Positions 10,395 to 41,640 of a stretch of 64,000 nucleotides of DNA are shown here, piece by piece. The position numbers and the translations under genes are program-made. Below the pieces are notes generated by a model, which saw only the letters and a list, made by a program, of their open reading frames with translations, was not told where the DNA came from and did no database searches. The stretch is from Bacilli bacterium (GTDB taxonomy: Bacteria; Bacillota_I; Bacilli_A; ML615J-28; CAG-698), in assembly GCA_017962745.1 (NCBI GenBank), contig JAGCUR010000018.1, positions 127,088 to 191,087 on the forward strand. The letters run 5' to 3'. Position 1 is the stretch's first letter. Each line of letters starts with the position of its first letter.

Positions 10395-11090
10395 ATGAAG
10401 TTTTATGGAATGGAAAAATTATCACTTGTTGATTTTGATGGCAAAATCACTTGCGTTTTGTTTTGCGGAGGGTGTAATTTCGCCTGCCCATTTTGCCATA
10501 ACTCTTCACTTGCTCTAAACCCATCTCTAAATCAAGAATTAGATTTTAGTGAAGTGATGGATTACTTAACTTTAAGGCGCAAAATGGTTGATGCGGTATG
10601 TATCACAGGTGGGGAACCTACTTTATATAAAGATTTAAAAGATTATTTTAAAATCTTTAAGGACATGGGCTTTATCACTAAACTTGATACTAATGGCACT
10701 AATCCAGATATGATAAGAGAGTTAGTAGAAGCTGGCTTAATTGATTATGTTGCCATGGACGTTAAGAATTCTTATACAAATTATTTTAAAACAATAGGAA
10801 AAGATGATCCTAAACTATTAGCTAAAGTAAAAGAAAGCATCGCTTATTTAATTGAAGGACATGTTGATTACGAATTTAGAACAACGATTGTAGAAGAATT
10901 ACATAAAGAAGAAGATTTCATCGAGTTAGCTAAAATGCTAAAAGGTGCTAAAAGGTATTTTCTTCAAAAATTCAAAAATTCTGAATACTGCATAGCTTCA
11001 GGTCTTCACGAGATAAAGATTGAAGATGCTAATAAATATTTAGAGATATTAAGAAAAGACTTAAATGATGTAAACTTGAGAGGTTATTAA
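10395..11090 (+). CDS. nrdG: Anaerobic ribonucleotide reductase activating protein (radical SAM, NrdG-like)
   Basis: 231 aa. Carries the CGGCNFACPFCHN cluster motif and the GGEPT glycine-rich SAM motif typical of small glycyl-radical activases. Confidence 0.75.
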   Translation: MKFYGMEKLSLVDFDGKITCVLFCGGCNFACPFCHNSSLALNPSLNQELDFSEVMDYLTLRRKMVDAVCITGGEPTLYKDLKDYFKIFKDMGFITKLDTNGTNPDMIRELVEAGLIDYVAMDVKNSYTNYFKTIGKDDPKLLAKVKESIAYLIEGHVDYEFRTTIVEELHKEEDFIELAKMLKGAKRYFLQKFKNSEYCIASGLHEIKIEDANKYLEILRKDLNDVNLRGY

Positions 11091-11091
11091 T

Positions 11092-12111
11092 ATGCATAAA
11101 TTTAGAAATGATTATTGCGAAATAGCACATGATGTAGTGCTAAAAGCATTAATTGATAATAAAGATTACCAGTTTAGCGGTTACGGGCTAGATGAGCATA
11201 GCCAAAACGCTGCTAAGCTTATTAAAGATTTATTTAAAGCACCAAGTGCAGATGTCCATTTTTTAGTTGGTGGAACACAAACTAATTTAACTTTTATATC
11301 TTATGTTTTAAAAGATTATGAAGCAGTGATTGCAGTAAAATCAGGTCACATCAATGTTCATGAAACCGGAGCAATTGAAGCTACTGGCCATAAAGTTTAT
11401 ACAGTGGATGGTGTAGATGGAAAGTTAACAGCTAGTGAATTAGAAAAAGCGGTTAAATACCACTGTGACGAACATATGGTAAAACCAAAATTAGCATACA
11501 TTTCTAATTCCACAGAAATTGGCACTATTTATCAAAAAGAAGAACTAACTAGTTTATATAATAAATGCCATGAGTTAGGTTTATACTTATTTATAGATGG
11601 GGCAAGGTTAGCATGTGCTCTTACAAGTGATGCCAATAATTTAGCACTAGATGATATTGCAAAAAACTGTGATGCTTTTTATTTAGGTGGAACAAAAAAT
11701 GGCCTTATGTTTGGCGAAGCTTTAGTAATTGTAAATAAAGAATTACAAGCTGATTTTAGATATCAAATAAAAAGTAAAGGCGCAATGCTAGCAAAAGGGT
11801 TTATTAGTGGTATTCAGTTTGAAGCAATTTTAAAAGATAATTTATATTTTAAGATTGCGAAAAGCGCTAATGATATGGCTAAGATATTATATGAAAGACT
11901 AGTTAGCCTAAACTTTGATGTTGATCCCGTTTATACTAATCAATTATTTGTAACTATCAAAAAGGATTTAGCATATAAACTAATTGAAGCTTTTGGCTGC
12001 GAACTATGGAAAGATTTAGGTGATAAATTAGTAATTAGATTTGTGACATCTTTTAATACAAAAGCAGAAGATATTGAAGAAGTATATAATTATTTAATAA
12101 ATATTAAATAA
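11092..12111 (+). CDS. ltaE: Low-specificity L-threonine aldolase (beta-eliminating lyase fold)
   Basis: Carries the FRNDY N-terminal motif and a PLP-lysine context (GGTKNG). About 340 aa. Confidence 0.7.
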   Translation: MHKFRNDYCEIAHDVVLKALIDNKDYQFSGYGLDEHSQNAAKLIKDLFKAPSADVHFLVGGTQTNLTFISYVLKDYEAVIAVKSGHINVHETGAIEATGHKVYTVDGVDGKLTASELEKAVKYHCDEHMVKPKLAYISNSTEIGTIYQKEELTSLYNKCHELGLYLFIDGARLACALTSDANNLALDDIAKNCDAFYLGGTKNGLMFGEALVIVNKELQADFRYQIKSKGAMLAKGFISGIQFEAILKDNLYFKIAKSANDMAKILYERLVSLNFDVDPVYTNQLFVTIKKDLAYKLIEAFGCELWKDLGDKLVIRFVTSFNTKAEDIEEVYNYLINIK

Positions 12112-13092: not shown

Positions 13093-13189
13093 AACTAATA
13101 GAAGATGATAAGAAAAACTTATGAAAAAATGAAAAAAATTTTATGAAAATGAATGAAAAAAATAGTCGTTAATAAAAGTAGCATTTTCC

Positions 13190-13218
13190 TTGATTTTAGG
13201 TTTTTAAATAGGTATAAT
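13190..13218 (+). promoter_or_regulatory. Sigma-70-type promoter of nrdD
   Basis: TTGATT-17-TATAAT, 25 bp upstream of the ATG chosen for nrdD. Preceded by phased A-tracts. Confidence 0.5.
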
Positions 13219-13242
13219 GCTAATTACAGGAGTGTGCGTGTT

Positions 13243-15603
13243 ATGTTAAATGTTAAGAAAAGAGATGGCAATATTGTACCATTCGATCTTAAGAAAATCG
13301 AAGGAGCAATCGAAAAAGCCTTTAAAGGATTAAACAAAAATTATTCTCAAGATATCATTGAGTTACTTGCTTTAAAAGTTACTGCTGATTTTAATAGCAA
13401 GGTAAAAGATGGCGTTATTGATGTGGAAGACATCCAAGATAGCGTAGAAGTAGTATTAATTCAATCGAGTTATGTTGATGTTGCTAAAGCATATATTTTA
13501 TATCGTAAGCAACATGAAAATATTCGTAATGTGAAGAATACTATTATTGACTATAAAGATACAGTTGATAACTATTTAAAGATTAATGACTGGCGTGTTA
13601 AAGAAAACTCGACTGTTACATATTCTGTTGGTGGCTTAATCTTATCAAATTCAGGTGCAGTTACAGCTAACTACTGGCTATCTGAAGTATATGATACAGA
13701 AATTGAACAAGCTCATCGTAATGCCGATATTCATATCCATGACTTATCTATGCTTACAGGATATTGTGCTGGATGGAGTTTAAAACAATTAATTCAAGAA
13801 GGCCTTGGCGGCGTTCCTGGAAAGATTACATCAACACCTGCTTCACACTTATCAACTTTATGTAACCAAATGACTAACTTTTTAGGTATTATGCAAAATG
13901 AATGGGCTGGCGCTCAAGCATTCTCATCATTTGATACATACCTAGCTCCATTTGTTAAGGTTGATAACTTATCATATAAAGAAGTAAAACAATGCATCCA
14001 ATCATTCGTATATGGTGTTAACACACCTTCACGTTGGGGAACTCAAGCTCCATTTACAAATATTACGCTTGACTGGGTAGTTCCAAATGACTTAGCAGAA
14101 CTTAATGCAATCGTTGGTGGAGTTGAACAAAACTTCAAGTACAAAGATTGCGTTAAAGAAATGGCTATGGTTAACAAAGCATTTATCGAAATCATGATTG
14201 AAGGTGATGCTAACGGAAGAGGTTTCCAATACCCTATCCCTACATATTCAATCACTCGTGATTTTGATTGGAGTGAAACTGAAAACAATAAGTTATTATT
14301 CGAAATGACAGCTAAATATGGTACTCCATATTTCTCTAACTACATCAATTCTGATATGGAACCAAGTGATGTTAGAAGTATGTGCTGCAGGTTACGACTT
14401 GACTTAAGAGAATTAAGAAAGAAATCAGGTGGTTTCTTTGGTAGTGGTGAATCAACTGGTTCAGTTGGTGTAGTTACTATCAATATGCCAAGACTTGCAT
14501 ACCTTGCTGAAAACGAAGCTGATTTCTTCAATCGTCTAGAAAAGATGATGGATTTATCAGCTAGATCTCTAAAGATTAAAAGAAATGTTATTACTAAACT
14601 TTTAGATGCCGGACTTTATCCATACACTAAAAAGTATTTAGGAACATTCAATAACCATTTCTCTACAATCGGATTAGTTGGTATGAATGAAGCTTGCTTA
14701 AATGCTAAGTGGATTGGTAAAGATTTAACTCATAAAGAAAGTATTGAATTCACTAAGAAAACTCTAAACTTTATGAGAGAAAAATTATCTGATTACCAAG
14801 AATTATATGGTGATTTATATAACTTAGAAGCAACTCCAGCTGAATCAACGGCTTATAGACTTGCAAAACATGATAAGAAGCGTTATCCAAATATCATCAC
14901 TGCTAGCGAAGGTAATAATACTCCTTATTACACTAACTCAAGTCATTTACCAGTTGGTTATACTGAAGATATCTTCAAAGCATTAGATATCCAAGATGAA
15001 CTTCAGACATTATATACATCAGGAACTGTTTTCCATGCCTTCCTTGGTCAAAAATTACCATCTTGGCAAGCTTGTGCTAAGCTAGTTAGAACAATCGCCG
15101 AAAACTACAAACTTCCATACTATACAATGTCACCTACATATTCTGTTTGTGCAAAACATGGATATATCGAAGGTGAAGAATATGTATGTCCTATTTGTGG
15201 GGAAAGAACTGAAGTATATTCAAGAATTACTGGTTACTATCGTCCTGTTCAAAACTGGAATGAAGGTAAGACTGAAGAATTCAAGAATCGTAAGACTTAT
15301 GATATCGATAATTCACATCTTTCTAAGAAAGAAGAAAAATGCGAATGCGAATGTAAGGCTGCTCCAGCTGTAAAAGAAATGATGCTTTTCACTACAAAGA
15401 CATGTCCAAATTGTAAGATGGCTAAGATGTTACTAGAAAAAGCTGGTATCAAATACAAGATGATTGACGCTGAAGATGAAAAAGATGTAACACTTCAATA
15501 TGGTGTTAGAAAAGCCCCTACATTACTAGTACCTAATGGCGATTCATTCGATCGTTATGAAAATGCTAGTGAAATTAAAGGATTTATCGAAAGACAAAAA
15601 TAA
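13243..15603 (+). CDS. nrdD: Anaerobic (class III) ribonucleoside-triphosphate reductase with a C-terminal glutaredoxin/NrdH-like domain
   Basis: ATP-cone N-terminus (VKKRDGNIVPFDLKKIEGAIEKAF) and NrdD core. C-terminal zinc ribbon CPICGERTE plus glycyl-radical loop SRITGYYRP. A further 75 aa thioredoxin-fold segment with TCPNCKMAK is in frame. Start moved to the internal ATG with an AGGAG RBS. Confidence 0.85.
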   Translation: MLNVKKRDGNIVPFDLKKIEGAIEKAFKGLNKNYSQDIIELLALKVTADFNSKVKDGVIDVEDIQDSVEVVLIQSSYVDVAKAYILYRKQHENIRNVKNTIIDYKDTVDNYLKINDWRVKENSTVTYSVGGLILSNSGAVTANYWLSEVYDTEIEQAHRNADIHIHDLSMLTGYCAGWSLKQLIQEGLGGVPGKITSTPASHLSTLCNQMTNFLGIMQNEWAGAQAFSSFDTYLAPFVKVDNLSYKEVKQCIQSFVYGVNTPSRWGTQAPFTNITLDWVVPNDLAELNAIVGGVEQNFKYKDCVKEMAMVNKAFIEIMIEGDANGRGFQYPIPTYSITRDFDWSETENNKLLFEMTAKYGTPYFSNYINSDMEPSDVRSMCCRLRLDLRELRKKSGGFFGSGESTGSVGVVTINMPRLAYLAENEADFFNRLEKMMDLSARSLKIKRNVITKLLDAGLYPYTKKYLGTFNNHFSTIGLVGMNEACLNAKWIGKDLTHKESIEFTKKTLNFMREKLSDYQELYGDLYNLEATPAESTAYRLAKHDKKRYPNIITASEGNNTPYYTNSSHLPVGYTEDIFKALDIQDELQTLYTSGTVFHAFLGQKLPSWQACAKLVRTIAENYKLPYYTMSPTYSVCAKHGYIEGEEYVCPICGERTEVYSRITGYYRPVQNWNEGKTEEFKNRKTYDIDNSHLSKKEEKCECECKAAPAVKEMMLFTTKTCPNCKMAKMLLEKAGIKYKMIDAEDEKDVTLQYGVRKAPTLLVPNGDSFDRYENASEIKGFIERQK

Positions 15604-15606
15604 ATT

Positions 15607-16512
15607 ATGATAGATATTATTGTAATTGGTGGAGGCGCAGCTGGGATGACCGCTGCCCTTTATGCTTTAAGAAGTGGAAAAAGTGTTTTAGTTTTAGAAA
15701 AGGAAAACTTTGGAGGTCAAATTGCTAATTCACCTCGAGTTGAAAACTTTCCTTCAATAAAAGAAATCAGTGGTGTTGATTTATCTAGTAACATGTTCGA
15801 TCAAATTTGTAGTTTAGGGGCTGAATTTGAGTTAGAAGATGTAGTAAGCGTTGAAAAAGTAGATGATCATTTCGTAGTAACAACTGACTATAATGAGTAT
15901 CAATCATCTGCAGTAATCATTGCAAGTGGTGTACACCACCGCAAGATTGGTGTAGAGGGTGAAGATGAGTTGGTTGGTAAAGGTGTATCATATTGTGCCG
16001 TATGCGATGGTGCTTTTTATAAAGACCAAGATGTAGTTTTAATTGGTGATGCTAATACAGCACTTCAATATGCATTGTTACTATCAAATTATTGTAAATC
16101 AGTACACATTTGCACATTATTTGATCATTTCTTCGGAGAAGATATTTTAGTTAAACGTATTAAAGATAGAGTTAATATTAAAGTTACTCATAATTTGTCT
16201 CTACAAAAGTTTAATTATGGTGATAGCCTAGAATCTTTAGATTTTATGGATACGCAAACTAAAGAAATGATTAACATACCTTGCGCTGCTTGCTTTATTG
16301 CTATTGGCCAAGTACCAAATAATGAGCGTTTTGCTAACTTAGTTGAGTTAGATCACGGCTATATCGTAACTGATGATGCTTGTAAAACAGCTACAGCTGG
16401 CGTATTTGCGGCTGGAGACTGTAGAAGCAAGAAGATTAGACAACTTACTACCGCTGTAGCTGATGGCGCTATTGCGGCTGTAGAAGCGGTTAATTATATC
16501 GACCGCAAATAA
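15607..16512 (+). CDS. Thioredoxin-reductase-like flavoprotein lacking the canonical NADPH-binding signature (FFTR-like)
   Basis: Has the GGGAAG FAD motif and a CAVCDG redox-active disulfide. The second GGGNSA motif is degenerate (GDANTA) and the HRRxxxR arginines are replaced (CTLFDHFFGE). Confidence 0.7.
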   Translation: MIDIIVIGGGAAGMTAALYALRSGKSVLVLEKENFGGQIANSPRVENFPSIKEISGVDLSSNMFDQICSLGAEFELEDVVSVEKVDDHFVVTTDYNEYQSSAVIIASGVHHRKIGVEGEDELVGKGVSYCAVCDGAFYKDQDVVLIGDANTALQYALLLSNYCKSVHICTLFDHFFGEDILVKRIKDRVNIKVTHNLSLQKFNYGDSLESLDFMDTQTKEMINIPCAACFIAIGQVPNNERFANLVELDHGYIVTDDACKTATAGVFAAGDCRSKKIRQLTTAVADGAIAAVEAVNYIDRK

Positions 16513-16596: not shown

Positions 16597-17505
16597 ATGA
16601 ATGGCTTAATTGAATGCATTCCAAATGTATCAGAGGGTAGAAATTTAGATATTGTTAACCATTTAGCTGAGGTTATAAAAATGGCTAAAGGCGTAATGCT
16701 ACTTGATTATAGTAGCGATGCGGATCATAACCGTAGCGTTTATACAATCGTTGGTGGCATCAAGGAAATGGAAGCTGCTATGTTTACCTTCATCAAGGAA
16801 GCGAGCTTGCTAATTGATTTAAACCATCACCAAGGCGTACACCCAAGAATGGGGGCAGTTGATGTTTGTCCATTTGTAAGCCTTGATGAAAAGTTAGCTG
16901 ATGAAGCCATCCAAATGAGCCGTAATTTAGCTAAAAGGGTAGCAAAAGATTTAAATATACCTACATATTTATACGAACTATCTTGTGTTAATCCATGCCA
17001 TAAGAATTTAGCTGATTTAAGAAGAGGCCAGTTTGAAGGCCTAGCTAAAAAACAACTAGATCCTAAATGGGCTCCTGACTATGGGATAGGTTTCCATAAG
17101 ACTGCTGGTGTAGTAGCAATAGGGGTAAGAAAGCCTTTAATTGCTTATAACATAATCCTTGATAGTAGCGATTTAGATGCTGCTAAAAGGATCGCATGCC
17201 AGATTCGTGAAAAGAATGGTGGCCTAAAGTCGGTTAAAGCGCTAGGTTTGTATTTGGAAACGACATCTAAAGTCCAAGTATCGATGAATTTATGTAATTA
17301 CTTAGATACGGGAATTATGGAAGTATTTAATGCAGTTAAAAAGTTAGCAGATAAAGAAGGTATAAACATTTTATATAGCGAACTAATCGGCTTAATGCCA
17401 AAAGATGCTACAAAAGACATTGATTTTGTAAAAATTAAGCTTAAAGATTTTGATTTAGATAAACAAGTAATTGAAAACCGAATCAAATCTTTGAAAGAAG
17501 GATAA
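16597..17505 (+). CDS. ftcD: Glutamate/glycine formimidoyltransferase (FtcD N-terminal formiminotransferase domain)
   Basis: MNGLIECIPNVSEGRN N-terminus and 300-aa two-subdomain formiminotransferase architecture. Confidence 0.8.
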   Translation: MNGLIECIPNVSEGRNLDIVNHLAEVIKMAKGVMLLDYSSDADHNRSVYTIVGGIKEMEAAMFTFIKEASLLIDLNHHQGVHPRMGAVDVCPFVSLDEKLADEAIQMSRNLAKRVAKDLNIPTYLYELSCVNPCHKNLADLRRGQFEGLAKKQLDPKWAPDYGIGFHKTAGVVAIGVRKPLIAYNIILDSSDLDAAKRIACQIREKNGGLKSVKALGLYLETTSKVQVSMNLCNYLDTGIMEVFNAVKKLADKEGINILYSELIGLMPKDATKDIDFVKIKLKDFDLDKQVIENRIKSLKEG

Positions 17506-18404: not shown

Positions 18405-19700
18405 ATGTTTGACTACAACATGAAGTTGACAGATGAACAATTAGAAATTCTAAATGGTGCCCAAGGTGCCACAATGGCTAAAGTTATGCAAACTTTAGTT
18501 ATGTTTGGCGAATTTCAAGGAGCAACTGAACTAGTGCCAATTACGCATTTAAATGGTCATCTATCGACTAGTTTTGGTATTGGTACGCTAAAACCTCTAT
18601 TTGAAGTTATGGAAAAACTAACTGATGATGAGATTAAAACTGTAGCCCCATTTACCGTTAACCCTCGTCCACTTGATTATACTAATGTGAAATGTAATTT
18701 CTTTGAACGAATTGTCTTTGATAAATACTTATACAATAAACAATCATTATACGAATCACAACTACTAAAACTAGGCTTAAAAGATAAAAATGCTTTTACT
18801 TGCACTAATTTCTTAGATGAAGTAGGCAACAGGCCTAAATATGGTGATATTTTATCTTGGGCAGAATCAAGTAGTGTCATCTATGCAAACTCGGTAATTG
18901 GTGCTAGATCAAATAGAAATAGTACGATGATTGAACTATTTGGTAATATTTTAGGATTAGTACCAAATTATGGATTATTACTTGATGAAGAAAGATTAGC
19001 AAGTACAAAAATAGTATTTAGACTTTCTCGATTATTTGATGCGCAAGCAATTGGCTTAGTAGTAGCAAAAGTAGCTAAAGATGAAATTGTTTATATTTCG
19101 GGACTTGATAAACATTTAGGAAAAGAATTAAGCGAAAAAGTTAAATCATATTTAAAAGACTTTGGGGCTAGCTTATCAGCAGTTAGCGATACGGGTTTAT
19201 ACCATATCGATAACATTACTCCTGAAGCTAAGAAGTTTGGTAACAAATTACTTAAAAAAGATTATAAGACAGTTGTTATCGATGATGAAGCTGTCCAAAA
19301 AGCGATTAAAGAAATTCCTGTTTTATGGAAAGATGAAAATGCGACTCCTAATCTATGCTTTATCGGTTGTCCACATTTATCACTTTTTCAACTAAATGAA
19401 TGGACTAAAAGGATAATTGACGGCTTAAAAGCTACTGAACATAAAAAAGTAGTAGTAAAGACAGTCTTGCTAGCAAGCCCTGATGTAATTACTAAATTTG
19501 AAGATACAGTTAATTATGATTTATTAATTAATGCCGGGGTAAAACTATCTAGTATTTGTCCGATTATGTTTACTAATAATCCAAAGACTAAGAAGAGATT
19601 AATAATTACCAATAGTAATAAATGTAGATACTTTTCTTCAAGCCGTTATTATACAAACGAAGATATTATTAATATCATCGTGGGGAAGGTGCAATCATGA
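18405..19700 (+). CDS. Aconitase X catalytic subunit (DUF521/AcnX large subunit)
   Basis: 431 aa with the DUF521 family signature (N-terminal helical region, central Cys/Ser-rich segment). Overlaps the start of the next gene. Confidence 0.65.
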   Translation: MFDYNMKLTDEQLEILNGAQGATMAKVMQTLVMFGEFQGATELVPITHLNGHLSTSFGIGTLKPLFEVMEKLTDDEIKTVAPFTVNPRPLDYTNVKCNFFERIVFDKYLYNKQSLYESQLLKLGLKDKNAFTCTNFLDEVGNRPKYGDILSWAESSSVIYANSVIGARSNRNSTMIELFGNILGLVPNYGLLLDEERLASTKIVFRLSRLFDAQAIGLVVAKVAKDEIVYISGLDKHLGKELSEKVKSYLKDFGASLSAVSDTGLYHIDNITPEAKKFGNKLLKKDYKTVVIDDEAVQKAIKEIPVLWKDENATPNLCFIGCPHLSLFQLNEWTKRIIDGLKATEHKKVVVKTVLLASPDVITKFEDTVNYDLLINAGVKLSSICPIMFTNNPKTKKRLIITNSNKCRYFSSSRYYTNEDIINIIVGKVQS

Positions 19701-20152
19701 AAGAATTTAAAGGTCGTGTCATTACCCCAGGTGAATGGATGGGTAAAGCCATCGTTACTAAAGAAGTCGTTAATATGATGGATACTTTCTACACTAGTGC
19801 TTACAAGAAAAGTAAGCAAGCAGTAGGAGGAGATCCTAAAAATAGCGATTTATATGGTAAAGTATTAACTGGTAATGCTTTATGCTTACCACACTCAAAA
19901 GCATCAGCAATCACTGGCTTAGTAATTCAAACGATATGTGAGATGAAAATATCACCAGCCGCCTATCTATTTAGTAATTCAATTGATGAAGTAGCTGCTA
20001 GCGGCATCATCTTAGCTAAGATTTGGGAAGATAGCGAAGTAATTTGTATTGATAACTTAGGATCTGACTTCTTAGATGCCATTAAAACTGATGATGAAAT
20101 AAAAATTGAGTATGATGGAACCGTAAAAATAATTGATAAAGATGATAAATAA
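19697..20152 (+). CDS. Aconitase X swivel-domain subunit (DUF126/AcnX small subunit)
   Basis: 151 aa, GxxLxGNALCLPHSKAS-type swivel domain. 4-bp overlap with the large subunit (ATGA coupling). Confidence 0.6.
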   Translation: MKEFKGRVITPGEWMGKAIVTKEVVNMMDTFYTSAYKKSKQAVGGDPKNSDLYGKVLTGNALCLPHSKASAITGLVIQTICEMKISPAAYLFSNSIDEVAASGIILAKIWEDSEVICIDNLGSDFLDAIKTDDEIKIEYDGTVKIIDKDDK

Positions 20153-20182
20153 AATGCTTTTCTTGCGAAAAGCATTTTTTTA
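20153..20182 (+). terminator. Rho-independent terminator after the AcnX pair
   Basis: atgcttttc-ttgc-gaaaagcat hairpin followed by T7. Confidence 0.65.
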
Positions 20183-20239
20183 ATGAAAAGAAAAATGTTT
20201 AATCTTTAAAAACGATTTGTTTTGTGCTAATATGGATAT

Positions 20240-22300
20240 ATGAAATATTATGAATTTGAGACAACTGAATATCCAATTAGTTATTATCTAGCCAAAGAAG
20301 AATACTTGCTTACTAAAAATGAGGAAGCATTTTTTATTTGGAACAATAAACCCGGTATCGTTATTGGTAAAAACCAAGTTTTAGATGATGAAGTAAATGT
20401 AGCGAAAGCTAAAGAAGATAATATCCCAATTTACAGACGTAAGAGTGGAGGCGGAGCTGTATATGCGGATAGCGGCTGCTTTATGTTTACTTTTATTGTT
20501 AAGAAAGATGTAATTTCAAACATTTATGCATCTTGCTTACGCAAGATTTATAAAGTTTTAAAACTAGCTGGTGTTAAATGCGAAATTGGGGAAAGAAATG
20601 ATATTTTAGTCGATGGCGCAAAAATATCAGGTAATGCCATTTACCTAAAGAGTAATTATGCGATCATGCACGGTAGCATTTTGTATGATTCTAAGCTTGA
20701 TGATATGGCTAAATATCTTACTCCTTCTAAAGAAAAACTAGCTAAAAATAAAGTAGCTAGTGTTAAAAGTAGGGTAACTAACTTAAAAGGTAAAACTGAT
20801 TATACTAAACTAGGCTTAATGAATTTCTTCCAAAAGTCAATTGGTACAACCAAAGGAAGACTATTTGATAGTGAAGAAAAAGTAATTGAAAGATTAGCGC
20901 AAAAATATGAAGAAGAAGCATGGCTAAGAGGTAAAAGAATTGAAACTAATTATAAAGTTAGTAAACGATTCCCTTGCGGTCAAATTACTTTTAATGCAAA
21001 ACTTGTTAAAAATGTTATTGAAGAAGTAATTATAAATGGTGATTTCTTTGAAAATTATGATATTCGTACCCTTGAACATAATTTCTTAGGGGCAAGAGTA
21101 TTTGAAATCGGCAAAGTTATCGATAAATTAACTATTTCTAAATTTATTTATGGCATAACTAATGATGAGTTTAAATCATTATTTATGGCTGTGGAGGAAA
21201 AGAAGAAAGATATGTTAGAAAAGAGAACATGTTTATATAAAAACCATATTAGACATAACGCTAAGATGGTCGAATTCGGTGGTTTCTTAATGCCACTAGA
21301 ATACACAAGCATTAGCGAAGAACATTTCGCGGTTAGAAATGATGCTGGTGTCTTTGACTGTTCACATATGGGTCAAATTAAAGTGTCAGGTGCTGATACG
21401 ATGGATTTCTTAAACTACATCTTAACATGTGATGTTAAGAGTGCACAAGTTAATCATATGGTATATGGTATGATGCTTTATCAAGATGGGACTGTTGTAG
21501 ATGACTTAATGGTTTATAAATATAAAGAAGATGAGTGCATGTTAGTAGTTAACGCATCTAATACCGATAAAGATTACGCTAATATCAATAAATATGCACC
21601 AAAGTTTAATGTAAAGATTGAAAACTTATCGGATGAATGCGGAGAACTAGCTTTACAAGGTCCAAAGGCTATAAATTATTTCTATAATTTCACAAGATAT
21701 AATCTTGATTCATTAAAGTTCTTCACCTTTGATTATTTTGAAATAGATGGGACTTTCTTCAACGTATCGCGTAGTGGATATACGGGATCTGATGGTTTTG
21801 AAATCTATGGTAAAAATAAAGATATCGTAAAATTATTTGAAGACTTAATAGAAAGCGGAGTTACTCCTTGTGGACTAGGCTGTAGAGATACACTAAGATT
21901 TGAAGCTGCTATGCCTTTATATGGCCATGAAATTAGTGAACAAACTACACCGCTTGAAGCGGGCTTAAATTATGCAGTTAGTTTTGATAAAGGCAATTTT
22001 ATCGGCCGCGAAGTTTTAGTTAAACAAAAAGAAGCAGGCGTCAAGAAAAAACTAGTAGGCCTTGAATTAAAAGAAAGAGGAATTGCTAGAAGCGGTTATA
22101 AACTATTCAAAGATGGTAAAGAAATTGGTTATATTACAACTGGTTATATGATTCCGGGTACCCAAAATTCATATGCTTTAGGTTATGTTACTAGAAAGAA
22201 TGCGAAGATTGGGACTGAAGTTGAAGTGCAAATTAGAAATAGATTAGTTAAAATGGAAGTAAGAGATAAGAAATTCTTGAAGAAAGAATACGTTAAGTAA
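20240..22300 (+). CDS. gcvT: In-frame fusion of lipoate-protein ligase (LplA) and glycine-cleavage aminomethyltransferase (GcvT)
   Basis: Residues 1-320 are LplA-like (RRKSGGGAVYADSGC, GNAIY...HGS). Residues 330-686 are GcvT (KRTCLYKNH..KMVEFGGFLMPLEY, GYTGSDGFEI). A single ORF with no stop between the two parts. Confidence 0.75.
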   Translation: MKYYEFETTEYPISYYLAKEEYLLTKNEEAFFIWNNKPGIVIGKNQVLDDEVNVAKAKEDNIPIYRRKSGGGAVYADSGCFMFTFIVKKDVISNIYASCLRKIYKVLKLAGVKCEIGERNDILVDGAKISGNAIYLKSNYAIMHGSILYDSKLDDMAKYLTPSKEKLAKNKVASVKSRVTNLKGKTDYTKLGLMNFFQKSIGTTKGRLFDSEEKVIERLAQKYEEEAWLRGKRIETNYKVSKRFPCGQITFNAKLVKNVIEEVIINGDFFENYDIRTLEHNFLGARVFEIGKVIDKLTISKFIYGITNDEFKSLFMAVEEKKKDMLEKRTCLYKNHIRHNAKMVEFGGFLMPLEYTSISEEHFAVRNDAGVFDCSHMGQIKVSGADTMDFLNYILTCDVKSAQVNHMVYGMMLYQDGTVVDDLMVYKYKEDECMLVVNASNTDKDYANINKYAPKFNVKIENLSDECGELALQGPKAINYFYNFTRYNLDSLKFFTFDYFEIDGTFFNVSRSGYTGSDGFEIYGKNKDIVKLFEDLIESGVTPCGLGCRDTLRFEAAMPLYGHEISEQTTPLEAGLNYAVSFDKGNFIGREVLVKQKEAGVKKKLVGLELKERGIARSGYKLFKDGKEIGYITTGYMIPGTQNSYALGYVTRKNAKIGTEVEVQIRNRLVKMEVRDKKFLKKEYVK

Positions 22301-22310
22301 GGAGAAAGTT

Positions 22311-22688
22311 ATGTATAAAGTATTAGAAAACTTAAAATATTCAAAGACTCATGAATGGGTAAGCGTTGATGGCGATGTTGCCACAATCGGTATTACTGAT
22401 TATGCCCAAGCTAGCCTTGGTACTGTTGTGTATGTAGAAGGGTATGAAATTGGGGAACACGTTGATCAAGGAGCTGAATGTGGAGCGGTTGAAAGCGTAA
22501 AAGCAGCTAGTGATATTATGGCTCCAGTAAGTGGTGATATCATTGATATCAACGATGATGTTATTAACGATCCAGAATTACTTAATAAAGATCCTTATGC
22601 TAATTGGATTTTAAAGATTAGAATGGATAATGAAGCTGAACTTGATAACTTACTCGATTCAGCTAGTTATAAGGATGAACAGAAATAA
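22311..22688 (+). CDS. gcvH: Glycine cleavage system H protein
   Basis: 125 aa with the lipoyl-lysine motif ESVKAASD and a strong RBS. Confidence 0.85.
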   Translation: MYKVLENLKYSKTHEWVSVDGDVATIGITDYAQASLGTVVYVEGYEIGEHVDQGAECGAVESVKAASDIMAPVSGDIIDINDDVINDPELLNKDPYANWILKIRMDNEAELDNLLDSASYKDEQK

Positions 22689-23986
22689 TGTTTAAATATT
22701 TTCCTCATACATTAAATGATGAAAAAGAAATGTTAGCTAAAATTAACTTATCCGAGTTAGATCAACTATTTAGTGATGTACCAGATCAAGTTAAAGTAAA
22801 AGAAGTTAACATTCCTTCATCTTTATCAGAAATTGAATTAAGGAATAAAGCAAACAAACTAGCATCAATTAACAAACAGCTAGTTTGTTTTGCTGGAGCG
22901 GGCAGTTATGATTGTTATACTCCTAGCGTAGTTAATGCTATTACCTCTCGCCAAGAGTTCTTAACATCATATACGCCATATCAAGCAGAAATTAGTCAAG
23001 GCACATTACAATATATCTTTGAATATCAAACAATGATTTGTAATTTAACCGGAATGGATGTTGCTAATGCATCTAATTATGATGGCGCAACTGCTGCTAT
23101 GGAAGCAATGCTTATGGCAGTTAACCAAACTAGAAAAAATACATTCATTTTACCACTTGATGTTAATCCTCGTGTAGCGGATGTTGTTAAGACATTAGCT
23201 AAGATGCATGGAATTAAGATTATTGAATGTAGCGTTAATGAAATCAATAATAATTTAAATGATGATTTAGCAGGCGTATTACTTGCTAATCCAAATTACT
23301 TTGGCGAAATTAATGATTATACTGGTCTAATTAGTAATATTCACGAAAACTCTAAAGCGATAGTAGCAATGTATACTGACCCATCAACATTAGCGATATT
23401 AAAATCACCTGGGGAAATGGGTGCTGATATTGCTTGTGGAGAAGCACAAAGTTTAGGAATTCCACTAAGCTTTGGTGGACCATATTTAGGCTTTATTGCT
23501 TCAACTGCTAAATTAATGCGTAAACTTCCAGGTAGAATCGTTGGTATGACGAAAGATACGGAAGGTAAAAGAGGCTATGTATTAACATTACAAGCTCGTG
23601 AACAACATATTAGAAGAGAAAAAGCAAATTCTAATATTTGCTCTAACCAATCATTAATGGCTTTACACGCTTTAGTGTATGTTGCCTTAATGGGTGGAGA
23701 TGGGCTAAAAGATGTGGCTAAAAGAGCATACAATAATGCTCACTATTTAGCTGAAACTTTAGCTAAATCAAGTAAAGTAAAAGTAAGCGATAAACCATTC
23801 TTTAAGGAATTTGTTGTTGAGACAAAATTTAATAGTGATGAATTCTTAAAATATATGGAAGATAATGGCATCCTTGCTGGTGTGAAAATCGATAATAATC
23901 ATTTACTAGTTTGTGCTAGCGAAGTTAGAACAAAAGACGAAATTGATTGTTATGTTAAGTTAGTGGAGGCATATGATGTACGATAA
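22688..23986 (+). CDS. gcvPA: Glycine dehydrogenase (decarboxylating) subunit 1
   Basis: 432 aa P-protein N-terminal half. TAATG overlap with gcvH. Confidence 0.85.
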   Translation: MFKYFPHTLNDEKEMLAKINLSELDQLFSDVPDQVKVKEVNIPSSLSEIELRNKANKLASINKQLVCFAGAGSYDCYTPSVVNAITSRQEFLTSYTPYQAEISQGTLQYIFEYQTMICNLTGMDVANASNYDGATAAMEAMLMAVNQTRKNTFILPLDVNPRVADVVKTLAKMHGIKIIECSVNEINNNLNDDLAGVLLANPNYFGEINDYTGLISNIHENSKAIVAMYTDPSTLAILKSPGEMGADIACGEAQSLGIPLSFGGPYLGFIASTAKLMRKLPGRIVGMTKDTEGKRGYVLTLQAREQHIRREKANSNICSNQSLMALHALVYVALMGGDGLKDVAKRAYNNAHYLAETLAKSSKVKVSDKPFFKEFVVETKFNSDEFLKYMEDNGILAGVKIDNNHLLVCASEVRTKDEIDCYVKLVEAYDVR

Positions 23987-25421
23987 ACTAATTTACGAAT
24001 TATCTAAACCAGCTAGAATTGCTTATTCTTTACCAAAAAGTGAAGTTAAAGAATATAAAATTGATAAAGATTTGACTAGATCAACTAGTTTAGATCTAGC
24101 AAGTGTAAGTGAACTTGATGTAGTTAGACACTACACTAAGTTATCGCTTAAGAATTTTGGTGTTGATCAAGGATTTTATCCACTTGGCTCATGCACAATG
24201 AAATATAATCCAAAGATTAATGAAGAAATTGCTAACCTTCCTAACTTTAAAAATATTCATCCACTTCAAAGTGAAGATAGTTCCCAAGGTTTAATGCAAA
24301 TATATTATGAAACATCAAAGATGTTAGCCGAAATTACAGGTATGGCTGAATTCTCATTTAATCCATTTGCTGGGGCACATGGCGAGTTAACTGGATTGAT
24401 GATTATGAAGCAATATCACTTAAATAGAGGTGACACTAAACGTACTAAAGTAATCGTACCTGATTCAGCTCATGGCACAAACCCAGCTAGTAGTGCTTTA
24501 TGTGGATTCGAAGTAGTACAAGTAGCATCTAAAGCAAATGGTACGGTTGATATTGAAGCACTTAAACCATTGCTTGATGATACAGTAGCTGGTATTATGA
24601 TGACTAATCCTAATACCGTAGGTATTTTTGAATCAGAAATCTTAGAAATTGCTAAGCTAATGCGTGAAAATGGCAGCTTACTTTATTATGATGGCGCTAA
24701 CCTAAATGCTATTTTAGGCGTAGCAAAACCAGCATTAATGGGCTTTGATATTATGCATATCAATCTTCATAAGACTTTCTCAACTCCTCATGGTGGCGGT
24801 GGTCCAGGAAGTGGGGCGGTTGGCGTAAAAGCTAGCTTAGTAGATTTACTACCTAATCCAAGAATTAAATTAGAAAATGGTAAATATCATTTTGTAAGTA
24901 CGAGCCCACTAAGAGTATCAGGATTTTATGGAAATGCCAATGTAGTTATTAAAGCATGGTGCTATATTTTATCTTTAGGTAAAGAAAATATAGCAAGTGT
25001 TGCTAAATACGCTGTTTTAAATGCTAACTACATTAAAGAAAGTCTAAAAGATTATTATAAATTACCAATTGCTAATATTTGTAAGCATGAAGTAGTATTT
25101 GATGGCCTAATTAGTGAAAAAGCAACTACCCTAGATGTTGCTAAGAGACTGCTTGATTATGGATATCATCCACCAACAATCTATTTCCCACTATTATTCC
25201 ATCAAGCATTGATGATTGAACCAACGGAAAATGAATCTAAAGAAACTTTAGATGAATTTATTGAGTGCTTAATTAAGATTGCTAAGGAAGCAGAAGAGAA
25301 TCCAGAGATCTTACACAACGCTCCACATACTACAATAGTTAAAAGACTCGATGATGTTCTTGCCGCAAGGCGCCCAATTCTAACTTACAAAGATTATTTA
25401 CAAAATAAAGATACATTTTAG
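23973..25421 (+). CDS. gcvPB: Glycine dehydrogenase (decarboxylating) subunit 2
   Basis: 482 aa with a PLP-lysine region (HINLHKTFSTPHGGGGPG). Overlaps gcvPA. Confidence 0.85.
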   Translation: MMYDKLIYELSKPARIAYSLPKSEVKEYKIDKDLTRSTSLDLASVSELDVVRHYTKLSLKNFGVDQGFYPLGSCTMKYNPKINEEIANLPNFKNIHPLQSEDSSQGLMQIYYETSKMLAEITGMAEFSFNPFAGAHGELTGLMIMKQYHLNRGDTKRTKVIVPDSAHGTNPASSALCGFEVVQVASKANGTVDIEALKPLLDDTVAGIMMTNPNTVGIFESEILEIAKLMRENGSLLYYDGANLNAILGVAKPALMGFDIMHINLHKTFSTPHGGGGPGSGAVGVKASLVDLLPNPRIKLENGKYHFVSTSPLRVSGFYGNANVVIKAWCYILSLGKENIASVAKYAVLNANYIKESLKDYYKLPIANICKHEVVFDGLISEKATTLDVAKRLLDYGYHPPTIYFPLLFHQALMIEPTENESKETLDEFIECLIKIAKEAEENPEILHNAPHTTIVKRLDDVLAARRPILTYKDYLQNKDTF

Positions 25422-25429
25422 GATATTTT

Positions 25430-26761
25430 ATGGAAAAACTATTTAAAGATTTAGTAATAATTGGTGCTGGTCCTGGCGGATACGAACTTGCTAGTATGGC
25501 AAGTAGTGCTGGACTTGATGTAGCCCTATTTGAAAAAAGCGAATTAGGGGGAACATGCCTAAACTGCGGCTGTATCCCAACTAAAACATATTTTCAATAT
25601 GCAAAAGTTAGGGAACAAGCAAATAAACTATATGCTAAAGAATTAGATTTTGAATTTATTGATTTATTTAATTCTAAAAATGATACCGTTAATGTCTTAA
25701 AGCAAGGAATTAAAGCTTCTTTAGCTAAAGTTCAAATAATTAGCGAAGAAGCAAAAATAGTTAAAACTGATGATAAAGTATTAGTTAGTAGTGAAAACTA
25801 TTTGATTGATGCCAAAAATATAGTTATCGCAACAGGATCAACTGATGCATCAATTAAAGCTAAAGGCATTAAGTATGCGGTTAATTCTAAGCAGTTATTA
25901 GAATTAGACCACTTGCCAACTTCAATTAACATCATTGGTGGTGGCGTAATTGGTATGGAAGTAGCATCAATTTACAATGCTTTAGGCGTTAAAGTTAATG
26001 TCTTTGAATATGCACCAATGATCTTGCCACGATTTGATAAAGAAGTATCTAGAAGACTTACTAATATCTTAAAAGCTAAAGGCATTAATATTTATAATAA
26101 TGCAGGCGTCACAGAAATTAAGAAAGTTAAAGGTGGATATAAAGTAATTGCTAGCGTTAAAGATAAGATTATTGAAGAAGAAGCTGAGATTGTTTTATGC
26201 GCTACTGGAAGAATTGCTAATACATCTAACCTTGGTTTAAGGGAAGCCGGCATTAGATTTGATAAAAAAGGTATCAAAGTAAATAAGAATTTGCAAACTA
26301 AAAATGTTAATGTTTATGCAATCGGGGATTGCATCGGTGGCATTATGCTAGCTCATAAAGCAAGTTTTGATGCAAAAGTTGTATTAAATCAAATACTTGG
26401 TAATAAATATAAAGTTAATTATGACTTAATACCTGCTTGTTGCTTTACATTACCTGAAGTCTCTAGTATTGGCCTAACTGAAGATGAGGCAAAAGAAAAA
26501 TATGGTGAAATTAAAGTAGTAAAAGAGTTATATAGAGCTAATGGTAAAGCCCAAGCTATTAAAGAAACTGATGGCTTTGTAAAACTAATTATTAAAAATG
26601 ATTTAATAATTGGTGCTAGTATCATTGGGGAAGAAGCTAACCTTTTAATTCATGAAGTGGTAGCGCTAATGAATGCTAAAGTTAAAGCAAGTGAAGCTAA
26701 AAAGTATATTCATGCGCATCCTACTTTATCAGAAATCATTCAAGGCTGCCTACAAAAATAA
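25430..26761 (+). CDS. lpdA: Dihydrolipoyl dehydrogenase (L-protein of glycine cleavage)
   Basis: GAGPGG FAD motif, GGTCLNCGCIPTK redox-active disulfide and a C-terminal HAHPTLSE dimerisation motif. Confidence 0.8.
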   Translation: MEKLFKDLVIIGAGPGGYELASMASSAGLDVALFEKSELGGTCLNCGCIPTKTYFQYAKVREQANKLYAKELDFEFIDLFNSKNDTVNVLKQGIKASLAKVQIISEEAKIVKTDDKVLVSSENYLIDAKNIVIATGSTDASIKAKGIKYAVNSKQLLELDHLPTSINIIGGGVIGMEVASIYNALGVKVNVFEYAPMILPRFDKEVSRRLTNILKAKGINIYNNAGVTEIKKVKGGYKVIASVKDKIIEEEAEIVLCATGRIANTSNLGLREAGIRFDKKGIKVNKNLQTKNVNVYAIGDCIGGIMLAHKASFDAKVVLNQILGNKYKVNYDLIPACCFTLPEVSSIGLTEDEAKEKYGEIKVVKELYRANGKAQAIKETDGFVKLIIKNDLIIGASIIGEEANLLIHEVVALMNAKVKASEAKKYIHAHPTLSEIIQGCLQK

Positions 26762-26775
26762 TATTTTTAATAATT

Positions 26776-28425
26776 ATTTAGACTACGTATGAACAGAGGC
26801 GCTATCAAATAACTGGGGGTTTTGATAAATAACCCTATAAAATAAGTGGGGGTCAAAAACACCTATAAAATTGATGGGGGTCGAAATAAGCCCGTTTCCA
26901 AATTAGGAAACGGGCTTTTTGTCAACCATTATAACTCATTTATGATAATTTCTAATTGGTGTATCCTTGTTTACAGCAAACATACACCTATTTCTAAATC
27001 TATCAAAGTTTTTATATCCATTGGCTGATTTAAGTATTATTTTAAGACGAGAATTGCAGCTTTCTATTTTTCCATTGGACAATCTTTTGCCTTTAACAAA
27101 CACGAATGAATTTTTGATTTCGTATTTCCATCTAATAATCATTTTTGTGAATTCATAGAATTCTGGTATACCTGAATTTGAGAATTTATATATTAAATCC
27201 TCAAAATCTTCCTCAAAATTATTGATATCGCAGTAATAATTAAACTCGCGATAATCTTCGGCTAAATTATATGCTTTTGTTAACTCTCCATCTATGGCTT
27301 TCAAGTATCCCAAAATTGTAAGTTTGTCCCATTTTGTTCTAATCTTATTAACGTTCCAAAGTTTATCTTCGAGTTTTGCATATGGTGTTTTAAAAAAGAA
27401 GTGAAACTTTTTAAGCATATAATAATACATATCAGCATTTTCTAATTTCGAATGACCCTTATCAAACTTTTTCATTGTTCTCAGTCTTACCATATCGACA
27501 GCTATGTTAAGGTGTTGTAAAACGTGAAATGAATCAACAGCAACTAATGCGTTTGGAAAAAGATCATTAGCAACTCTTTTATAAGAGTCCCACATATCCA
27601 TAACGATGTACTTAACGTTTTTTCGCTCATTTAAAGGTATTCTATATAAATTTTGAAGTAATGATAAATAATGCCTAGTTGGATAGATGTCAATAATATT
27701 ACCATTAAAGAAGTTAAGAAGAACACAGATATATTTATCCGGTTTCATATTCTTAGTATATATTTCATCCATGCATATTACTTCAGAAAGGGGCAATCTT
27801 TTACAGCTAACGTACTTATCGAATATATTAATGACAGATTGCGATGTAATTGAAAATAGTTTCGCAACACTAATGAAAGTAGCAGTATGGCTTCTAAGTT
27901 TTTCTAGTACTAGTAGATCGGTTTGCAAAGATACTTTTTCATCTTTTTGGCAAAACGGATTATTTTCATAGAAAATAGAGCCACACATCTTACATTTAAA
28001 TCTTCGAGATTTATATTTTAAAATACAAGGTTTATCTATTAATAAAGAATGCTTAATAGATTTAATTCTATAATCGTGTATGCAACAATCAGTACATCCA
28101 CATTTTGGGCAAGTAGCAATATTGTTCTTTAATACGACATAATAAATAATGGTATTGTTTTCCTTAATGAGCGTAGATTTATCTAAATCTATATTATAAG
28201 TTTCTAAATTTAGCAATTTTATGATATCATAATTCATGAAGACCTCCTTTTTTTTAATTGGTTGACACTCAATTATATCAAAAAAAGGTCTTCCTTTTTT
28301 TTACAAAAAAAGAGGCTATCAAGAGATGGGGGTCACCCCCAAGAAATTGATAGCCTATGCTTGACCCCCAAGAAATTTATATAACCTGAACAGTTAAGTG
28401 CTCGTTTATACGTAGTTTTTATTTG
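26776..28425 (-). mobile_element. ISL3-family insertion sequence. Ends are approximate: inner inverted repeats GGC(G)CTATCAA...TGGGGGT and outer ACTACGTAT are both seen.
   Basis: Single 433-aa ISL3 transposase ORF flanked by inverted sequence. Left end gaggcgctatcaaataactgggggtt (26794-26819); right end tgacccccaagaaattgatagcc (28337-28360) read on the other strand. Further outer ACTACGTAT/ATACGTAGT inverted pair at 26783-26791 and 28404-28412. Confidence 0.5.
26936..28237 (-). CDS. ISL3-family transposase
   Basis: N-terminal zf-ISL3 (CPKCGCTDCC...CKMCG) followed by the DDE region typical of IS204/IS1001/IS1165-type transposases, about 430 aa. Confidence 0.8.
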   Translation of the reverse strand: MNYDIIKLLNLETYNIDLDKSTLIKENNTIIYYVVLKNNIATCPKCGCTDCCIHDYRIKSIKHSLLIDKPCILKYKSRRFKCKMCGSIFYENNPFCQKDEKVSLQTDLLVLEKLRSHTATFISVAKLFSITSQSVINIFDKYVSCKRLPLSEVICMDEIYTKNMKPDKYICVLLNFFNGNIIDIYPTRHYLSLLQNLYRIPLNERKNVKYIVMDMWDSYKRVANDLFPNALVAVDSFHVLQHLNIAVDMVRLRTMKKFDKGHSKLENADMYYYMLKKFHFFFKTPYAKLEDKLWNVNKIRTKWDKLTILGYLKAIDGELTKAYNLAEDYREFNYYCDINNFEEDFEDLIYKFSNSGIPEFYEFTKMIIRWKYEIKNSFVFVKGKRLSNGKIESCNSRLKIILKSANGYKNFDRFRNRCMFAVNKDTPIRNYHK

Positions 28426-28510
28426 AATATAACTTATCCAATTGTAAAAAAATTACTTGCAAATTATGTGCAAACGAAGTAAAATTAAATTGTAAGAGGA
28501 GGATACAATT

Positions 28511-28786
28511 ATGGCAAATGTAAATGTAACCATTAGAATGGATGAAAATTTAAGGAAAGAAGCAGCTTTATTGTTTGATGATTTAGGAATTGGTCTTAAT
28601 CAAGCAATGACTCTTTTTGTTAAGCAGGCTGTAAGGGAGCAAAGAATCCCATTTGAAATTACGCGAAATATTCCAAATAAAGAGACATTAGATGCATTTA
28701 AAGAAATAGAATTAATGAAAGCTGGAAAGATTCCTTTTAAGGCATACGATAATGTAGATGAATTGTTCGAGGATGCCTTGAAATGA
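28511..28786 (+). CDS. dinJ: RelB/DinJ-family antitoxin (ribbon-helix-helix)
   Basis: 91 aa, MANVNVTIRMDENLRKEAALLFDDLGIGLNQAMTLFVKQ typical of DinJ. Promoter with TTGCAA/TAAAAT upstream. Confidence 0.75.
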   Translation: MANVNVTIRMDENLRKEAALLFDDLGIGLNQAMTLFVKQAVREQRIPFEITRNIPNKETLDAFKEIELMKAGKIPFKAYDNVDELFEDALK

Positions 28787-29058
28787 AATATAAAGTAGTA
28801 ATGTCTTCTAGGTTTTCAAAGGACCTAAAAATAATTGCTAGACGTGGATATGACTTGAATAAAATAAAGTACGTGATTAGTGAACTAGCAAATGGCAATA
28901 CACTTGATCCAAAATATAAAGATCACCAATTACAAGGAGATTATACTGGAAAAAGAGAGTGCCATATTTTACCTGACTGGTTATTGATATATGAAATAAG
29001 AGATAATGAGTTGTTGCTTTATTTAGCAAGAACCGGCTCTCATTCAGATTTGTTCTAA
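28783..29058 (+). CDS. yafQ: YafQ/RelE-family mRNA interferase toxin
   Basis: 91 aa, 4-bp overlap with the antitoxin. Conserved HxLxGxxxGxRExHI motif (DHQLQGDYTGKRECHI). Confidence 0.75.
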   Translation: MKYKVVMSSRFSKDLKIIARRGYDLNKIKYVISELANGNTLDPKYKDHQLQGDYTGKRECHILPDWLLIYEIRDNELLLYLARTGSHSDLF

Positions 29059-41637: not shown

Positions 41638-41640
41638 TTT

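Follow-up and report, generated by a model that had tools for sequence, protein, structure and literature searches.

Among the Bacillota, stand-alone two-domain lipoate-protein ligases of the LplJ/LplA1 type (8cri, 5iby, 1vqz; M. hyopneumoniae Lpl, 6jom) carry the RRxSGGGAVY and KxSGNA motifs, and the glycine cleavage H-protein (GcvH) is their expected acceptor (PMC7186572). A ligase (LplA) joined N-terminally to a protein of lipoate metabolism or use is known from the bifunctional LplA-LipA proteins (NF053790), and the T-protein of glycine cleavage (aminomethyltransferase, GcvT) is found fused to pathway neighbours in GcvT-GcvPA (P0127), FolD-GcvT (P0191) and HemD-GcvT (P0155, P0159) proteins. 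In the canonical Bacillota operon, gcvT, gcvPA and gcvPB stand under a tandem glycine riboswitch. Here we analyze a 64,000-nt stretch of a Bacilli bacterium genome (GenBank assembly GCA_017962745.1, contig JAGCUR010000018.1, positions 127,088 to 191,087 of the forward strand; hereafter the window), in which a single open reading frame (ORF) joins LplA to GcvT in frame and heads a glycine cleavage operon. We consider it likely that this is a genuine, selectively maintained fusion, which would have arisen when a tandem lplA-gcvT pair lost the lplA stop codon in the ancestor of a small clade of uncultured, low-GC, ruminant-gut Bacilli, and which would supply a 78-kDa bifunctional protein as part of a self-lipoylating operon expressed from a leaderless mRNA without a riboswitch. 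This interpretation builds on the architecture of the protein, its conservation, purifying selection, the conservation of a promoter block, the absence of a riboswitch and the presence of unfused tandem genes in the nearest relatives, all of which are observed.

The ligase portion of the window protein resembles the stand-alone enzymes in domain layout and in both motifs, but it lacks a stop codon and runs on into GcvT, no stand-alone LplA recovered with its LplA half as query is more than 38% identical to it, and the His of their VYHD motif is replaced. The N-terminal placement of LplA is shared with LplA-LipA, and the window protein matches the LplA part of NF053790 (aa 1-321, 249 bits); the partner in those proteins is, however, lipoyl synthase, and the window protein, which has no radical-SAM part, falls far under that model's cutoff of 800. 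With the other GcvT fusions it shares the joining of the T-protein to a pathway neighbour and, for those with an N-terminal partner, the same point of attachment on GcvT, but none of their partners is a cofactor-attachment enzyme. Four long proteins with a C-terminal GcvT and other partners emerged from a HMMER pass, two with HemD, one with FolD and one with an LPG-synthase membrane domain, in addition to one C-terminal GcvPA fusion; together these are P0155, P0159, P0191, P0131 and P0127. The FolD-GcvT fusion is functionally logical, since FolD consumes methylene-tetrahydrofolate, and the HemD-GcvT and membrane-domain-GcvT fusions could be gene-calling artefacts. Compared with the canonical operon, the order of the T, P-alpha and P-beta genes and their overlapping, translationally coupled organization (as in the unfused relatives L013 and L014) are alike, whereas the window operon has no riboswitch or leader and includes gcvH, lpd and the ligase. 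Finally, tandem but separate lplA-gcvT pairs occur in two relatives among the uncultured Bacilli (L016, GCA_028700315.1 JAQVSY010000054; L017, JGI Ga0591956_0109117). These have the same gene order, a promoter-proximal short lplA start and a gcvT Shine-Dalgarno (SD) motif at the 3' end of lplA, and L016 likewise shows no glycine riboswitch; they differ in their TAA stop codon and 4-7 nt spacer, and their LplA is just 34-36% identical to that of the fusion.

The fusion and its parts are laid out in the window as follows:

20240-22300, plus strand: lplA-gcvT fusion ORF (686 aa, 78.4 kDa, ATG start, no upstream SD)
20282-21181, plus strand: lipoate-protein ligase module, made up of a catalytic (aa 15-184) and a C-terminal accessory domain (aa 235-314)
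21182-21226, plus strand: linker, aa 315-329 (FMAVEEKKKDMLEKR), Lys/Glu-rich, with A-rich, weakly structured RNA
21233-22279, plus strand: aminomethyltransferase (T-protein) module, GCV_T (aa 332-578) followed by GCV_T_C (aa 603-680)

A sequence-only reading of this DNA had proposed an in-frame LplA-GcvT fusion with the junction ...KSLFMAVEEKKKDMLEKRTCLYKNH..., and domain searches bear this out. Pfam profiles for all four domains are matched almost end to end: LplA-B_cat (PF21948; 159 bits against a cutoff of 27, 1.4e-46), Lip_prot_lig_C (PF10437; 50.4 bits against a cutoff of 24, 2.1e-13), GCV_T (PF01571; 276 bits, 2.6e-82) and GCV_T_C (PF08669; 65 bits, 7.3e-18). The GcvT half scores 376.6 bits on NCBIfam TIGR00528, above the equivalog cutoff of 235.85, and the LplA half covers TIGR00545 nearly from end to end (1-315 against 1-327 of 328). 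The score on the latter model narrowly misses its cutoff, and the NCBI label for P0001 is therefore merely 'GcvT'; the fusion thus exposes an annotation gap, in that public records name the protein just GcvT. The LplA half aligns over both domains, motifs included, with the solved ligases 8cri and 5iby, and the ligase motifs RRKSGGGAVY (aa 66-75) and GAKISGNA (K128) are invariant across eight fusion sequences.

The same fusion is present in relatives. A search of 5.8 billion proteins recovered seven full-length fusion clusters of 685-692 aa, with identities of 99, 83, 68, 67, 66, 64 and 63% (overall about 62-99%), all remaining matches being stand-alone GcvT proteins of at most 48% identity. 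The architecture is rare: when 1.84 billion 50%-identity representatives were scanned exhaustively with HMMER, a single cluster (P0005) matched from end to end, although independent LplA-GcvT fusions of less than about 256 bits in total would escape such a scan. Queried with just the LplA half (aa 1-320), the word-indexed search missed the seven fusions at 62-99% identity and is hence unusable for claims of absence. At the DNA level, the operon fusion-gcvH-gcvPA-gcvPB-lpd is found in every one of the fusion loci (L001-L012 and L019), in agreement with the gene order read from the window alone. L001 was the sole addition from a genome scan, whose patterns reach close relatives only, and L019 (97% identical) the sole addition from a metagenome scan; the named record among these loci is the water-buffalo rumen metagenome-assembled genome 'Bacilli bacterium RGIG8164'. 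Both halves evolve under strong purifying selection, with dN/dS values (Nei-Gojobori; dS about 0.6-1.8) of 0.07-0.28 for LplA and 0.065-0.22 for GcvT, and the linker is relaxed (0.37-1.1). Linker lengths of 13, 14, 16 and 20 aa occur among the relatives, and the underlying indels are always multiples of three. As far as can be seen, the fusion is confined to one small clade of rumen Bacilli. It is not mentioned in the literature searched, including a survey of lipoate assembly (PMC10332631), and NCBIfam, which holds an exception model for the LplA-LipA fusion (NF053790), has none for LplA-GcvT. The domain architecture is thus apparently undescribed so far; it is a new combination of two well-known families and not a new kind of system.

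Directly 3' of the fusion lie the remaining components of the glycine cleavage system:

22311-22688, plus strand: gcvH, 125 aa, with lipoyl-lysine motif ESVK64AAS and a strong SD (TAAGGAGAAAGTT-ATG)
22688-23986, plus strand: gcvPA (P-protein subunit 1), start overlapping the gcvH stop; PF02347 in syntenic orthologues
23973-25421, plus strand: gcvPB (P-protein subunit 2), with a 14-nt overlap with gcvPA
25430-26761, plus strand: lpd, dihydrolipoyl dehydrogenase (L-protein), TIGR01350 416 bits, cutoff 408.8
26890-26920, no strand assigned: perfect 10-bp GC-rich hairpin (GCCCGTTTCC-aaatta-GGAAACGGGC) followed by TTTTT

The operon genes overlap or sit within about 10 nt of one another. The hairpin was read directly from the sequence and is absent from the list produced by the hairpin pattern scan of the window; it probably marks the end of the operon, shared with a convergent transposase gene. 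In L002 and L007, clpB follows lpd with at most one small ORF in between; relative to this synteny, positions 26762-29058 form an insertion, which contains three repeats of about 30 nt with TGGGGGT (about 26810-26885), the hairpin terminator at 26890-26920, an IS-type transposase (26936-28237, minus strand) and a RelB/DinJ-YafQ-like toxin-antitoxin pair (28511-29058).

The unfused relatives suggest how the fusion came about. The stand-alone LplAs closest to its ligase half, P0269 (36%) and P0271 (34%), are each encoded directly 5' of a separate gcvT. The two genes are 7 nt apart in L016 (...GTT TGG AGG TAA agtcaga ATG AGG AAA ACT ATT TTG TAT) and 4 nt apart in L017 (...GTG TGG AGG TAA ataa ATG AAA AAA ACG GTT TTG TAT), the gcvT SD TGGAGG lying within the last lplA codons, and in the more distant relative L013 lplA is divergent from a gcvT-H-PA-PB-lpd operon. 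A tandem lplA-gcvT pair in the ancestor of the clade, followed by loss of the lplA stop codon, is likely the simplest history. The sequence-only reading had named separate genes at the same position in relatives as evidence that would speak against a fusion; such genes do exist in L016 and L017, but only at a distance (LplA 34-36%), and most plausibly represent the ancestral arrangement. The stop loss itself could not be retraced base by base from L016 and L017: the TGGAGG core is shared but is read in another frame and sits two codons farther along, and the divergence between the lineages is too great. The resulting evolutionary series would lead from a divergent lplA with a riboswitch (L013), through tandem lplA-gcvT (L016/L017), to the fusion, showing the displacement of a regulatory leader and the survival of an intergenic SD and start codon as a linker.

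Upstream, an 87-nt gap (20153-20239) separates the fusion from the gene for the AcnX small subunit, and the following elements were identified in this region:

20151-20178, listed on the minus strand: 12-bp hairpin flanked by T/A runs, which terminates the acnX genes on its 5' side; palindrome AAAATGCTTTTCTTGCGAAAAGCATTTT and T-run also on the plus strand
20205-20210, plus strand: -35-like hexamer TTTAAA within the CTTTAAAA block, 17 nt 5' of the -10
20223-20233, plus strand: extended -10 element TGTGC-TAATAT (TGTGCTAATAT; TRTG plus -10 hexamer), hexamer at 20228-20233

The terminator hairpin implies that the gcv operon is transcriptionally isolated, and the extended -10 element would provide it with a promoter of its own. 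GGATAT separates the -10 hexamer from the ATG at 20240, whose A is thus the seventh base counted from the hexamer. With this spacing, transcription would be expected to begin at the start codon or no more than 1-2 nt from it, implying a leaderless mRNA. The sequence-only reading had pointed out this geometry, and it holds in six of the seven distinct lineages: variants of the -10 element (TGTGyTAATAT, TGTGTTACTAT or TATGATAAGAT) keep exactly the same spacing to the ATG in every lineage but L009/L010. The block CTTTAAAA-N12-TTTGTGyTAATAT-GGATAT-ATG is conserved in six loci, as well as in L011, L012 and L019, despite differing upstream genes (acnX, L-serine dehydratase sdaA, a CHAP-domain protein, amylase), and the sequence further 5' is unalignable. 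No SD precedes the fusion ATG, and about two thirds of the genes in the window have an SD-like motif; strong AGGAGG/GGAGG motifs in the window lie mostly 3-9 nt from the start. In L009/L010, where the promoter block is lost and the gene begins 37 nt after acnX, the start reads GGATAGGAAATAAT-ATG, with an SD-like AGGAAA at 5 nt. This exchange of a promoter for an SD is what would be expected if the other lineages translate a leaderless transcript, and expression of the fusion from a leaderless mRNA is likely on this sequence evidence, with the transcription start itself predicted from promoter spacing. As a candidate operator the conserved upstream block was discarded, the one feature seen being a 6-bp TAATAT/ATATTA inverted repeat that is unremarkable in 31% GC DNA. 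A second start of leaderless type lies at 41620-41645 of the window (ggTATAATttaatttATG), where a perfect -10 hexamer ends 7 nt before the ATG of a 175-aa ORF (41641-42168) with no Pfam match and no SD.

That no glycine riboswitch precedes the operon, as the sequence-only reading had surmised, was substantiated with the Rfam model RF00504, which gave no match at the gathering threshold in the whole window, and none at E<=10 within 19900-20500; five fusion loci and L016 likewise gave no match. Tandem glycine aptamers do lie directly 5' of gcvT in the unfused relatives L013 and L014. The placement of lplA ahead of gcvT was therefore accompanied by the loss of glycine sensing.

The junction retains features of a translation start. 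In the window, the linker reads GCT GTG GAG GAA AAG AAG AAA GAT ATG TTA GAA AAG AGA ACA TGT TTA TAT and contains the following elements:

21193-21197, plus strand: GGAGG (SD-like), 14 nt ahead of the internal ATG
21212-21214, plus strand: in-frame ATG (M325), five codons ahead of the TCLY motif, at the usual GcvT start position

The first methionine of stand-alone GcvT proteins aligns to fusion residues 325-327. Across eight lineages codon 325 is ATG in three and GTG in five, and never GTT, GTA or GTC, even though GTG accounts for 5-16% of the Val codons in the fusion genes. Val appears four or more times in 43 alignment columns, and just two of these encode it by GTG throughout, codon 325 and V318. 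Both are in the linker, and the third base of the V318 codon opens the GGAGG run. A GGAGG or GGGGG run occurs at the junction in six of the eight genes despite differing residues (VEE, TGE, LGE), the number of SD-like G-runs per 2-kb fusion gene being 2-5, one of which encodes the invariant SGGGA. In every gene, the RNA of the 50 nt around codon 325 also falls within the least structured 3-11% of windows. These patterns suggest that the start codon at position 325 has been kept by selection. Were that so, some free 41-kDa GcvT would be expected from internal initiation at this codon, for which we judge the chances to be roughly even. A passage in PMC7733448 (citing Okamura-Ikeda 1999, 2003) describes the N-terminal region of the T-protein as essential for productive association with the H-protein; given that statement, the production of free GcvT would make biological sense. 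In the full-length product, 324 residues precede the T(P/C)LY region, and the T-protein thus has no free N-terminus, which initiation at the conserved codon 325 could restore. The internal start that the sequence-only reading had singled out (MLEKR.., M325) is conserved as ATG or GTG in all eight lineages, so a separate GcvT may well be produced alongside the fusion.

Three other accounts of the locus were weighed. The reading frame could be continuous only through a sequencing or assembly error, a lost base or stop falsely joining two genes, as the sequence-only reading had cautioned in asking whether a stop was missing at the junction. All that speaks for such an artefact is the general prior of errors in metagenome assemblies, and the junction is open in all of at least 13 loci, drawn from ENA, NCBI, JGI and Logan assemblies of different samples, at 62-99% identity and with varied linker lengths. 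Independent conserved loci, low dN/dS and invariant motifs together exclude an assembly artefact or a decaying pseudo-domain, and we assign this explanation a negligible probability. The N-terminal half might instead act as a LipM/LipL-like transferase of octanoyl or lipoyl groups, or serve as a catalytically inactive scaffold that binds the H-protein. This is suggested by its shortfall on TIGR00545, its low identity to any stand-alone LplA and the replacement of His by Ala, Ser or Thr in the GGGAVY(H)D motif. The C-terminal accessory domain found by Pfam, however, is present in ATP-dependent ligases and lacking in the LipB and LipM octanoyltransferases (PMC10332631); the TIGR00545 match runs from end to end, the best PDB matches are all lipoate-protein ligases, neither the catalytic Lys128 nor RRxSGGGAVY varies, and dN/dS matches the low level of GcvT. 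A function other than salvage ligase is hence quite improbable.

Somewhat less improbable, though still unlikely, is that the locus operates as two genes, with the fused polypeptide a tolerated by-product of stop loss whose GcvT portion adds little, and the working T-protein the approximately 41-kDa product initiated at M/V325. The NTG codon kept in eight of eight lineages, the SD-like run in six of them, the unstructured RNA around codon 325, a junction geometry like that of the unfused L016 and L017, and the reported importance of a free T-protein N-terminus for H-protein binding, as put in the passage of PMC7733448 cited above, would all fit such an arrangement. Against it, every linker indel preserves the reading frame, and at dS>1 not a single lineage has won back a stop or slipped out of frame, a sign that selection also favours read-through into GcvT; moreover, the 11-14 nt SD spacing is suboptimal for this genome, and the existence of HemD-GcvT and FolD-GcvT fusions indicates that the T-protein may tolerate an N-terminal partner. 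A dual output can be envisaged, more tentatively than the fusion itself: the leaderless start would yield a little LplA-GcvT fusion, and the internal SD and ATG/GTG the bulk of free T-protein, with its native N-terminus, for catalytic cycling, while the fusion would capture new apo-GcvH, lipoylate it and hand it over to the T-protein active site. If this doubtful scheme were true, the ligase-to-T-protein stoichiometry would be set by two modes of translation initiation on one riboswitch-free mRNA.

Several points weigh against the reading of the locus as a maintained, functional fusion with an internal start. Every fusion sequence is metagenome-derived. The LplA half reaches only 268.8 bits on TIGR00545, short of the equivalog cutoff of 280, and has VYAD where characterised ligases have VYHD, the His being replaced by Ala, Ser or Thr throughout the clade. 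An AF2 model built from the eight-sequence fusion alignment (pLDDT 65, pTM 0.42) is too poor to define an inter-domain interface. At the junction, the SD-like run lies 11-14 nt from the ATG/GTG, compared with a genome norm of 5-9 nt, and is degenerate in L003 and L007, and the low RNA structure could stem simply from Lys and Glu codons. Fusion might also impair, rather than aid, T-protein function, given what the PMC7733448 passage says of its N-terminus.

Under the favoured interpretation, a maintained bifunctional fusion, the N-terminal module would activate lipoate with ATP and transfer it to Lys64 of GcvH, and the C-terminal module would catalyse transfer to tetrahydrofolate of the aminomethyl group carried on lipoylated GcvH; both activities are predicted from homology. 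Since both modules would dock GcvH, the fusion would guarantee co-expression and co-localisation of the maturation enzyme and the catalytic partner of its client; we infer that lipoylation may be physically coupled to the glycine cleavage complex, as the sequence-only reading had envisaged. With H, P-alpha, P-beta and L added by the operon, a single transcription unit would constitute a self-sufficient, self-lipoylating glycine cleavage system.

A ligase of this type, with its C-terminal accessory domain, implies an ability to use free lipoate. A Pfam scan of essentially all other ORFs of the 64-kb window found no LipA, LipB, LipM, LipL, second LplA or E2 lipoyl protein, which upholds the earlier remark that no lipA or lipB is visible, and the two radical-SAM proteins of the window (10395-11090, 48068-49438) are without LipA features. 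The ligase type and the absence of lipA and lipB from these 64 kb would be compatible with a lipoate-scavenging organism. The presence of lpd within the gcv operon fits GcvH as the main or only lipoyl protein.

Neighbouring genes give some indication of the metabolic setting. An aconitase-X pair (AcnX large subunit and swivel; 18405-20152) immediately precedes the operon, an arrangement kept in most relatives. Genes related to glycine, serine and one-carbon metabolism are enriched nearby, namely a threonine-aldolase-like beta-eliminating lyase and a formimidoyltransferase (FTCD) (11092-12111, 16597-17505); in relatives, the gene immediately 5' of the fusion encodes an L-serine dehydratase (L003, 6567-7751; L005, 5372-6568). 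These neighbours hint at a role of the gcv operon in amino-acid catabolism or C1 supply. Elsewhere (13153-16512), the window encodes an anaerobic ribonucleotide reductase, NrdD (816 aa), with a glutaredoxin-like C-terminal domain (aa 744-791), directly followed by a thioredoxin-reductase-like flavoprotein (15607-16512), a pairing kept in L002, L003 and L011 that suggests a thiol-based, and not formate-based, reductant for this class III enzyme.

The LplA-GcvT protein represents a natural Rosetta-stone fusion between a cofactor-attachment enzyme and the complex that uses that cofactor. The six activities gathered in its operon (ligase, T, H, P-alpha, P-beta and L) form a cassette that could serve the engineering of glycine cleavage or of the reductive glycine pathway without host lipoylation. 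For the organisms themselves, reduced Bacilli of the rumen, the fusion favours the idea of GcvH as a dedicated, and perhaps the only, client of the ligase.

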